64,000 bases of DNA, from NCBI RefSeq assembly GCF_022846255.1, contig NZ_AP025682.1; one strand, written 5' to 3'. This stretch comes from Escherichia coli (GTDB taxonomy: Bacteria > Pseudomonadota > Gammaproteobacteria > Enterobacterales > Enterobacteriaceae). The stretch's first letter is position 1. The number at the start of each line of letters is the position of its first letter. The position numbers were made by a program. Below are positions 31,601 to 34,600 of this stretch, one piece after another.

Positions 31601-34600
31601 ATGGAAGAGAGACTCTCTCGCAGCCCTGGTGGCAAACTGGCTTTGTGGGCTTTCTATACATGGTGTGGCTATTTCGTCTGGGCAATGGCGCGTTACATCT
31701 GGGTGATGAGCCGGATCCCCGATGCCCCCGTGTCGGGATTTGAAAGCGATTTAGGCTCTACCGCGGGAAAGTGGTTAGGGGCACTGGTCGGATTTTTATT
31801 TATGGCTCTGGTCGGGGCATTGTTAGGCAGCATTGCCTGGTACACCCGACCTCGTCCCGCACGTAGCAGACGCTATGAATAAAAACTGCTAAGGTGGCGA
31901 CTCTTTGGCAACGGAGCGCGTATGGACTTACAACACTGGCAGGCAGAGTTCGAAAACTGGTTGAAAAACCATCATCAGCACCAGGACGCGGCCCATGACG
32001 TGTGTCATTTTCGCCGCGTCTGGGCTACGGCACAGAAGCTGGCGGCAGATGATGACGTCGATATGCTGGTGATTTTAACCGCCTGTTATTTTCACGATAT
32101 TGTGAGCCTGGCGAAAAATCATCCGCAACGGCAGCGTTCTTCAATCCTGGCGGCAGAAGAGACGCGTCGCCTGCTCCGTGAAGAGTTCGTGCAATTTCCG
32201 GCGGAGAAAATTGAGGCCGTTTGTCATGCCATTGCCGCTCACAGTTTCAGCGCGCAAATCGCCCCCTTAACAACGGAAGCTAAAATCGTCCAGGATGCGG
32301 ATCGGCTGGAAGCCCTGGGGGCGATTGGCCTGGCGCGCGTGTTTGCCGTTTCAGGGGCATTGGGCGTGGCGCTGTTTGATGGCGAAGATCCGTTCGCACA
32401 GCATCGCCCGCTTGATGATAAACGCTACGCGCTGGATCATTTCCAGACAAAGTTACTGAAATTACCGCAAACCATGCAAACCGCAAGAGGCAAGCAGCTG
32501 GCGCAGCACAACGCGCAATTTTTAGTCGAGTTTATGGCGAAGCTCAGTGCCGAACTGGCGGGGGAGAATGAAGGTGTCGATCACAAGGTGATAGATGCGT
32601 TTTCACCCGCGGGCTGAGCGCGTGGCCCTAAATGGCTGTAATTATGTTAACCTGTCGGCCATCTCAGATGGCCGGTTAAATCTATGCAGGAAAATATATC
32701 AGTAACCGATTCATACAGCACCGGGAATGCCGTTCAGGCAATGCTGGAGAAACTGCTGCAAATTTATGATGTTAAAACGCTGGTGGCGCAGCTTAATGGT
32801 GTGGGTGAGAATCACTGGAGCGCGGCAATTTTAAAACGTGCACTGGCGAATGACTCGGCATGGCACCGTTTAAGTGAGAAAGAGTTCGCCCATCTGCAAA
32901 CGTTGTTACCCAAACCACCGGCACATCATCCGCATTATGCGTTTCGCTTTATCGATCTATTTGCCGGAATTGGCGGCATCCGTCGCGGTTTTGAATCGAT
33001 TGGTGGACAGTGCGTGTTTACCAGCGAATGGAACAAACATGCGGTACGCACTTATAAAGCCAATCATTATTGCGACCCGGCGACGCATCATTTTAATGAA
33101 GATATCCGCGACATCACCCTCAGCCATCAAGAAGGCGTGAGTGATGAGGCGGCGGCGGAACATATTCGTCAACACATTCCTGAACACGATGTATTACTGG
33201 CCGGTTTTCCTTGTCAGCCATTTTCGCTGGCTGGCGTATCGAAAAAGAACTCGCTCGGGCGGGCGCACGGTTTTGCCTGCGATACCCAGGGCACGCTGTT
33301 CTTTGATGTGGTGCGCATTATCGACGCGCGTCGTCCGGCGATGTTTGTGCTCGAAAACGTCAAAAACCTGAAAAGTCACGACCAGGGTAAAACGTTCCGC
33401 ATCATCATGCAGACGCTGGACGAACTGGGCTATGACGTGGCTGATGCAGAAGATAACGGGCCGGACGATCCGAAAATCATCGATGGCAAACATTTCCTGC
33501 CGCAGCACCGTGAACGCATCGTGCTGGTGGGTTTTCGTCGCGATCTGAATCTGAAAGCCGATTTTACCCTGCGTGATATCAGTGAATGTTTCCCTGCGCA
33601 GCGAGTGACGCTGGCCCAGCTGCTGGACCCGATGGTCGAGGCGAAATATATCCTGACGCCGGTGCTGTGGAAGTACCTCTATCGTTATGCGAAAAAACAT
33701 CAGGCGCGCGGTAATGGCTTCGGTTATGGAATGGTTTATCCGAACAATCCGCAAAGCGTCACGCGTACGCTGTCTGCGCGTTATTACAAAGATGGCGCGG
33801 AAATTTTAATCGATCGCGGCTGGGATATGGCCACGGGTGAAAAAGACTTTGACGATCCGCTGAATCAGCAACATCGTCCACGTCGGTTAACGCCTCGGGA
33901 ATGCGCGCGCTTAATGGGTTTTGAAGCGCCGGGAGAAGCGAAATTCCGCATTCCGGTTTCGGACACTCAGGCTTATCGCCAGTTCGGTAACTCGGTGGTC
34001 GTGCCGGTCTTTGCCGCGGTGGCAAAACTGCTTGAGCCAAAAATCAAACAGGCGGTGGCGTTGCGTCAGCAAGAGGCACAACATGGTCGACGTTCACGAT
34101 AAGGCCACCCGCAGCAAAAATATGCGCGCGATTGCCACGCGTGATACGGCGATTGAGAAGCGCCTCGCCAGTTTGTTAACTGGGCAGGGCCTTGCGTTTC
34201 GCGTTCAGGACGCCAGTCTGCCCGGACGCCCGGATTTTGCCGTTGATGAATATCGCTGCGTGATATTTACCCATGGCTGCTTCTGGCATCATCATCACTG
34301 CTATCTGTTTAAAGTGCCTGCGACTCGAACCGAGTTCTGGCTGGAGAAGATAGGTAAAAATGTTGAGCGCGATCGCCGCGATATCAGTCGCTTGCAGGAA
34401 CTCGGCTGGCGCGTATTGATTGTCTGGGAGTGCGCGTTACGTGGGCGCGAGAAGCTGACGGATGAAGCGCTTACCGAGCGTCTGGAAGAGTGGATCTGCG
34501 GCGAAGGTGCCAGCGCGCAGATCGACACGCAGGGGATACATTTACTCGCTTGATGCGTCCTGAATAACTGGCGCAACTACGGGTTTTGCCGGAAAGAGAT

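Follow-up and report, generated by a model that had tools for sequence, protein, structure and literature searches.

How are the DNA methyltransferase gene dcm and the mismatch endonuclease gene vsr joined on the chromosome of Escherichia coli, and does the way they are joined matter for the synthesis of Vsr? This question is raised by a 64,000-nucleotide (nt) stretch of contig NZ_AP025682.1 (RefSeq assembly GCF_022846255.1), hereafter the window, in which the original prediction, made from the sequence alone, had placed the ATG of vsr at 34083 inside the end of dcm. The reading of the open reading frames (ORFs), the RefSeq coordinates and the profile alignments all bore out this placement in two different frames (Table 1). 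A 2,021-bp query (32600–34620) was 100% identical to the genome of E. coli FDAARGOS_497 and to others, and RefSeq gives dcm and vsr of E. coli FDAARGOS_497 identical coordinates. Relative to dcm, vsr is read in the +1 frame because the second base of the His467 codon of dcm (CAT, 34082–34084) is the first base of the vsr ATG, and (34083-32684) mod 3 is 1. The dcm sense codons within the overlap encode His-Gly-Arg-Arg-Ser-Arg (His467–Arg472) and are followed by TAA. The ATG had been said to lie in the last seven codons of dcm, which is correct if TAA is counted; as sense codons, there are only six plus the stop. If this TAA were lost, the next stop in the dcm frame of the window would be TGA at 34142. 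The overlap was thus confirmed as an observation and its interpretation was supported. It is an ordinary arrangement and, as had been stated, one already known: partial overlap of dcm and vsr was described previously (PMC4444293), and the two genes form one operon (PMC4924334, PMC12907096). We read the locus as the dcm-vsr operon of the E. coli chromosome, in which translation of vsr begins at an ATG of its own (34083) in the +1 frame and coupling serves as the working model; the probability of this reading is about 0.9.

Table 1. Coordinates of the dcm-vsr junction and of other features in the window.
Feature	Position	Strand	Evidence
dcm, DNA-cytosine (C5) methyltransferase, 472 amino acid residues	32684..34102	+	ORF from ATG 32684 to TAA 34100-34102
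vsr, very-short-patch-repair T:G mismatch endonuclease, 156 amino acid residues	34083..34553	+	ORF from ATG 34083-34085 to TGA 34551-34553
dcm/vsr overlap, 20 nt: dcm codons 467-472 plus TAA; vsr codons 1-7, +1 frame	34083..34102	+	Direct reading of sequence
dcm stop TAA inside vsr codons Asp6-Lys7 (GAT AAG, 34098-34103)	34100..34102	+	Direct reading
Shine-Dalgarno-like AAGAGG, 6 nt 5' of vsr ATG, within dcm codons	34071..34076	+	Sequence; predicted duplex with 16S 3' end, -5.8 kcal/mol
In-frame ATG, vsr Met14; non-overlapping alternative start, rejected	34122..34124	+	Upstream sequence AGGCCACCCGCAGCAAAAAT, no Shine-Dalgarno sequence
Yersiniabactin high-pathogenicity island (irp1, irp2, ybtA, ybtPQXS)	1-21302		Annotation of collinear genome NZ_CP033850.1
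Island integrase	~19803-21065		Annotation of collinear genome NZ_CP033850.1
tRNA-Asn, adjoining the yersiniabactin island	21227-21302	-	ARAGORN
tRNA-Ser(CGA)	22294-22383		
Small RNA RseX	31263-31352	-	Rfam gathering threshold, 99 bits
Small RNA DsrA	39688-39774	+	Rfam gathering threshold, 102.5 bits
Frameshifted DUF5503 pseudogene and integrase fragment, between yedL and fliE	~52327-53765		Annotation of collinear reference genome, coordinates converted

The identities given to the two genes were upheld by protein alignment with the Pfam and NCBIfam/TIGR models. Dcm scored 259.9 bits against Pfam PF00145 (DNA_methylase; cutoff 22), which matched residues 87–448, and Pfam PF18284 (DNA_meth_N) matched residues 19–75. 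Against NCBIfam NF007772 (PRK10458), the score was 951.1 bits (cutoff 710) over model positions 1–471 of 472, and the score against TIGR00675 was 350.9 bits. The translation of dcm contained both the PCQ motif, the catalytic motif IV of C5 methyltransferases, and the ENV motif, their motif VI. As Dcm of the window differs from Dcm of K-12 by just two substitutions, A17V and K149Q, it probably methylates the inner C of CCWGG. The frame of vsr is open from 33921 to its TGA, and the first ATG in it is that at 34083. Vsr scored 131.8 bits against Pfam PF03852 (cutoff 27), with residues 3–74 on profile positions 2–73 of 74, and 180.1 bits against TIGR00632 (cutoff 97.85), with residues 1–118 on profile positions 1–119 of 119. 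It also aligned without gaps to the crystallised Vsr of E. coli (1CW0, 1VSR, and 1ODG). Residues 3–156 were the same as those of 1CW0, whose chain comprises residues 2–156, except for V53A. The catalytic and zinc-binding residues, whose roles we take to be those assigned in the work on 1CW0, were retained. Given that Vsr of the window departs from Vsr of K-12 only by A2V and V53A, it is expected to nick 5' of the T in T:G mismatches within CTWGG/CCWGG.

The overlap depends on where vsr begins. A vsr start at a downstream codon without overlap had been named as the finding that would speak against the original prediction, and the only candidate is the ATG at 34122, which is in frame, lies 3' of the dcm stop and would make Met14 the first residue. 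This ATG is without a Shine-Dalgarno (SD) sequence, whereas AAGAGG precedes the ATG at 34083 at a spacing of 6 nt. The Pfam and TIGR profiles of Vsr align from residues 1–3, upstream of Met14. Moreover, residues 1–13 are conserved in distant homologs: M-[A/V/T]-D-[V/I] stands right after the start codon in Salmonella, in Klebsiella and in six distant plasmid homologs that tblastn retrieved from Pseudomonas, Marinobacter, Thauera, Celeribacter, Rhizobium, and Sphingorhabdus. The 1CW0 chain includes residues before Met14, and RefSeq places the start at 34083. Finally, Vsr without its first 14 residues (Vsr-delta14) is impaired: its endonuclease and repair activities are reduced and its stimulation by MutL is lost (PMC2715241). 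A start at 34122, and with it the lack of an overlap, is therefore very improbable, and by the profile alignments, the homologs and the published work on the N-terminus, the true start of vsr is the ATG at 34083. The TTG codons farther upstream in the vsr frame (33921, 34011, and 34032) were also considered as starts and rejected; they had no profile or homolog support and would add non-homologous sequence.

The junction is widespread in E. coli and was found in 5367 of 5426 complete genomes. Both genes were annotated in every match sampled across the E. coli ranking, and the 20-nt overlap was kept in the two most divergent E. coli matches fetched (95.0 and 89.7% identity). The junction of the window is a common allele, since its exact 60-nt sequence was present in 1524 of the 5367 genomes. 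Similar to the window, Salmonella and Klebsiella have a 20-nt overlap in the +1 frame, and their RefSeq annotation matches it. For a wider survey, DNA was scanned with a pattern of vsr codons 3–15 in one genome per species, which gave 82 matches, of which 80 loci from ~25 genera of Enterobacteriaceae were readable. Because the pattern fixes them, Vsr residues 3–15 are invariant in this set, and their invariance was not used as evidence. By tblastn, 56 of the 80 readable loci had a dcm homolog directly upstream, with identities of 74–97%. All 56 dcm-linked loci showed an overlap and none a gap. The overlaps were 20 nt (n = 50), 17 nt (n = 3), 23 nt (n = 1), and 35 nt (n = 2) in length, and the vsr start codon was ATG in 48 loci and GTG in 8. 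In E. coli CM13 (NZ_CP114893.1), from which dcm is deleted, apparently by engineering, all that is left of dcm is a 72-nt remnant of its 3' end, which retains the 20-nt overlap with an annotated vsr that is intact.

Comparison with known systems places the window next to E. coli K-12, which has the same locus (drpB-yedJ-dcm-vsr-yedA-yedI), the same 20-nt overlap in the +1 frame and the same start and stop positions. A single base differs between the overlap sequences; it accounts for A2V of Vsr (GCC to GTC) and leaves the Dcm residue unchanged (GGC to GGT). The modules of EcoRII type, consisting of methylase, Vsr and restriction enzyme, on plasmids and phages, such as the plasmids of Pseudomonas syringae (pB26-2), Marinobacter (pMAD49a), and Celeribacter (pP73D), also have a C5 methylase gene followed without gap by vsr on the same strand, and their Vsr proteins begin with M-[A/V]-D-[V/I] immediately at the start codon. 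Different from the window, however, these modules have overlaps of just 1, 4, or 8 nt and a restriction endonuclease gene after vsr, and their methylases are 406–453 amino acid residues long and lack the long N-terminal domain of the enterobacterial enzyme. In Burkholderia phage KL3, the methylase gene and vsr overlap by 1 nt (PMC3091744). Thus, methylase gene and vsr generally adjoin without a gap, and an overlap of 20 nt is characteristic of the enterobacteria. Caulobacter vsrA belongs to the same Vsr family but is unlinked to scmA and has neither an adjacent methylase gene nor an overlap (PMC12907096).

Some enterobacterial vsr genes also stand without dcm. In 18 species representatives of Enterobacteriaceae, a vsr gene with the same residues 3–15 had no dcm homolog upstream; these included Kosakonia, Phytobacter, Pseudescherichia vulneris, several Enterobacter spp., K. 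oxytoca, and K. spallanzanii. They belong to the same family as vsr of the window and occupy the same chromosomal position, but with no adjacent methylase gene there is no overlap. Among the eight dcm-less loci with ORFs listed, five were at the same site between yedJ and yedA, where vsr follows yedJ after a short spacer (12–19 nt in three examples) and has a strong SD sequence. Two of the species, K. oxytoca and K. spallanzanii, retain remains of the dcm tail (EINHGRRSR*/EINHGRRPR*, the asterisk marking the stop) behind a GntR-like gene, and their vsr has almost no SD sequence.

CCWGG is methylated by Dcm, T:G mismatches arise when 5-methylcytosine deaminates, and the nick made by Vsr next to the T starts very-short-patch repair (PMC2715241, PMC12907096). 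The vsr ATG at 34083 lies 17 nt before the dcm stop in the +1 frame; therefore, both proteins would come from a single mRNA that leaves no room for an intergenic gap. On this mRNA, ribosomes finishing dcm would keep the weakly SD-marked start of vsr accessible. Alternatively, they may terminate at the TAA at 34100–34102 and then re-initiate at the vsr start. By either route, Vsr would be produced whenever Dcm is, and as the methylated inner cytosine of CCWGG deaminates to thymine, Vsr would nick 5' of the mismatched T in CTWGG/CCWGG and allow short-patch resynthesis. Translational coupling is the most likely working model, and its physical mechanism is inferred. Dar and Bhagwat reportedly found in 1993 that dcm and vsr are co-transcribed and that Vsr synthesis requires translation of the upstream dcm, and are said to have proposed that this ensures the presence of Vsr alongside Dcm. 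According to PMC4444293, which cites Dar and Bhagwat (1993), dcm-6, a nonsense mutation at codon 45 of dcm, abolishes vsr activity as well.

The survey and the scans of the window are consistent with such coupling. The SD sequence of vsr varied among the dcm-linked relatives and was weak or absent in many of them, such as Klebsiella and Citrobacter, and dcm-less vsr genes mostly had a stronger one (median -7.0 kcal/mol, compared with -4.3 kcal/mol in dcm-linked loci; Mann-Whitney p = 0.005, uncorrected for phylogeny). In addition, a consensus scan of 31800–35700 found no promoter-like site for vsr within dcm. This region gave two promoter-like sites in all and its shuffles 3.6 on average; the lack of one inside dcm is weak negative evidence only. 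The weaker SD sequences of dcm-linked loci and the lack of a promoter-like site inside dcm both agree with the coupled model.

Several points weigh against this reading. The effect of dcm-6 could equally be explained by transcriptional (Rho) polarity, and the usable SD sequence of E. coli makes an independent initiation of vsr possible. A minimum free energy fold of 34030–34130 gave an RNA hairpin closed by GGUGGC/GCCACC that would hold the SD sequence, the ATG and the dcm stop, but it was rejected: its z of -1.35 against shuffles was not significant, and in a four-sequence alignment of E. coli, Salmonella, and Klebsiella the covariation term was +0.81, the outer helix being invariant or broken, so that compensatory support was also missing. 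Moreover, the comparisons of SD sequences and of Asp6 codons (see below) were uncorrected for phylogeny, and the constancy of residues 3–15 in the 80 loci came from the construction of the search pattern.

What sets the length of the overlap is suggested by the exceptions. In Siccibacter colletis and S. turicensis, Asp6 of Vsr is encoded by GAC; the embedded TAA is therefore lost, and dcm reads on to a later TAA, which results in a 35-nt overlap and in Dcm tails of RRTRQSDAQ* and RRTRQSDPQ*, respectively. GAT was found at Asp6 in 54 of the 56 dcm-linked and 13 of the 18 dcm-less loci (Fisher p = 0.008, uncorrected for phylogeny). The Pfam methylase domain stops at Dcm residue 448, so the tail lies beyond it, and in the sequences derived by tblastn, to which this comparison is confined, the Dcm tail varied across taxa (HGRRSR, HDRRSR, DGGRSR, and DGGCSR) while the Vsr head was constant. 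With a variable tail outside the domain and a constant head, the overlap appears to evolve under the constraint of Vsr, the Dcm tail being largely a passenger. To judge from these sequences, the overlap length looks like a by-product, with the residues and stop of the Dcm tail dictated by the wobble bases in the conserved codons 2–7 of vsr. It is doubtful, on the other hand, that the geometry of the overlap is a tuned re-initiation device that sets a low ratio of Vsr to Dcm, with the bias for GAT over GAC reflecting selection on synonymous sites of vsr to keep the dcm stop. If it were, such a device might explain why Vsr activity reportedly depends on the growth phase although the mRNA is shared.

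The overlap might be real and yet functionally incidental, with vsr translated independently from its AAGAGG, the first stop of the dcm frame merely falling in vsr codons 6–7 and no coupling of translation. A tail that is variable, outside the Pfam domain and dictated by the vsr wobble positions would suit this explanation, as would the drift in overlap length (17, 20, 23, and 35 nt in enteric bacteria and 1–8 nt on plasmids), the well-spaced SD sequence ahead of E. coli vsr and the 16 dcm-less loci in which vsr works as a gene on its own after yedJ. However, a gap occurred in 0 of the 56 dcm-linked loci, which argues against an incidental overlap, and the weak or absent SD sequences in many of these loci, such as those of Klebsiella and Citrobacter, argue against independent initiation. 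The loss of Vsr activity through an early dcm nonsense mutation (PMC4444293) also speaks against this explanation, which we regard as possible and yet rather unlikely. The two frames overlap and differ by +1, so +1 ribosomal frameshifting in the overlap could also be imagined to yield a Dcm-Vsr fusion that supplies the Vsr activity; nothing else supports it. An ATG or GTG start was kept at the head of vsr in 56 of 56 dcm-linked and 18 of 18 dcm-less loci, vsr occurs without dcm, and the engineered dcm-deleted E. coli keeps its intact annotated vsr. Furthermore, Vsr was crystallised and assayed in vitro as a separate protein of 155–156 amino acid residues. A frameshifted fusion is hence scarcely credible, and coupled translation of vsr from its own ATG at 34083 is preferred over these explanations.

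The flanks of the operon show further features. A perfect palindrome, GGCCATCTcAGATGGCC, is located at 32658–32674, 10 nt 5' of the dcm ATG and within the 66-nt spacer between yedJ and dcm. It was also found in K-12 and in E. coli EC01440, whose locus is 95.4% identical, and was absent from Salmonella and Klebsiella. An operator, an RNA hairpin and the remnant of a repeat are possible explanations for it. No obvious SD sequence was seen ahead of dcm. At the other end, vsr (TGA 34551–34553) and yedA on the minus strand (stop 34542–34544) converge and overlap by 12 nt at 34542–34553, and this overlap is likewise annotated in K-12 and Salmonella. A terminator after vsr was considered and rejected, as the consensus scan of 31800–35700 gave no terminator-like site on the plus strand 3' of 34553; vsr instead overlaps the convergent yedA.

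The remainder of the window contains the other features listed in Table 1. The window is collinear with the genome of E. coli FDAARGOS_497, with seven mismatches up to 59,033, and then diverges. From 59034 to 64000, ~1,620 mismatches were found over the end with fliS, fliD, fliC, and fliA, which fits a different flagellin (H-antigen) allele that may have been gained by recombination.

In this part of the window, the coordinates and gene calls of the original prediction were reliable. The window carries the arrangement known from K-12, here in a different lineage of E. coli, and shows every feature of the two families and of the arrangement that can be checked in sequence. The comparative details are small refinements that do not change the current understanding: the overlap is universal among the dcm-linked enterobacteria, the dcm stop lies within vsr codons, and vsr without dcm is found at the same position. 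The locus remains a classic pairing, in which mutagenic cytosine-5 methylation and its antidote, the nicking of T:G mismatches, are brought together via interlocked genes.

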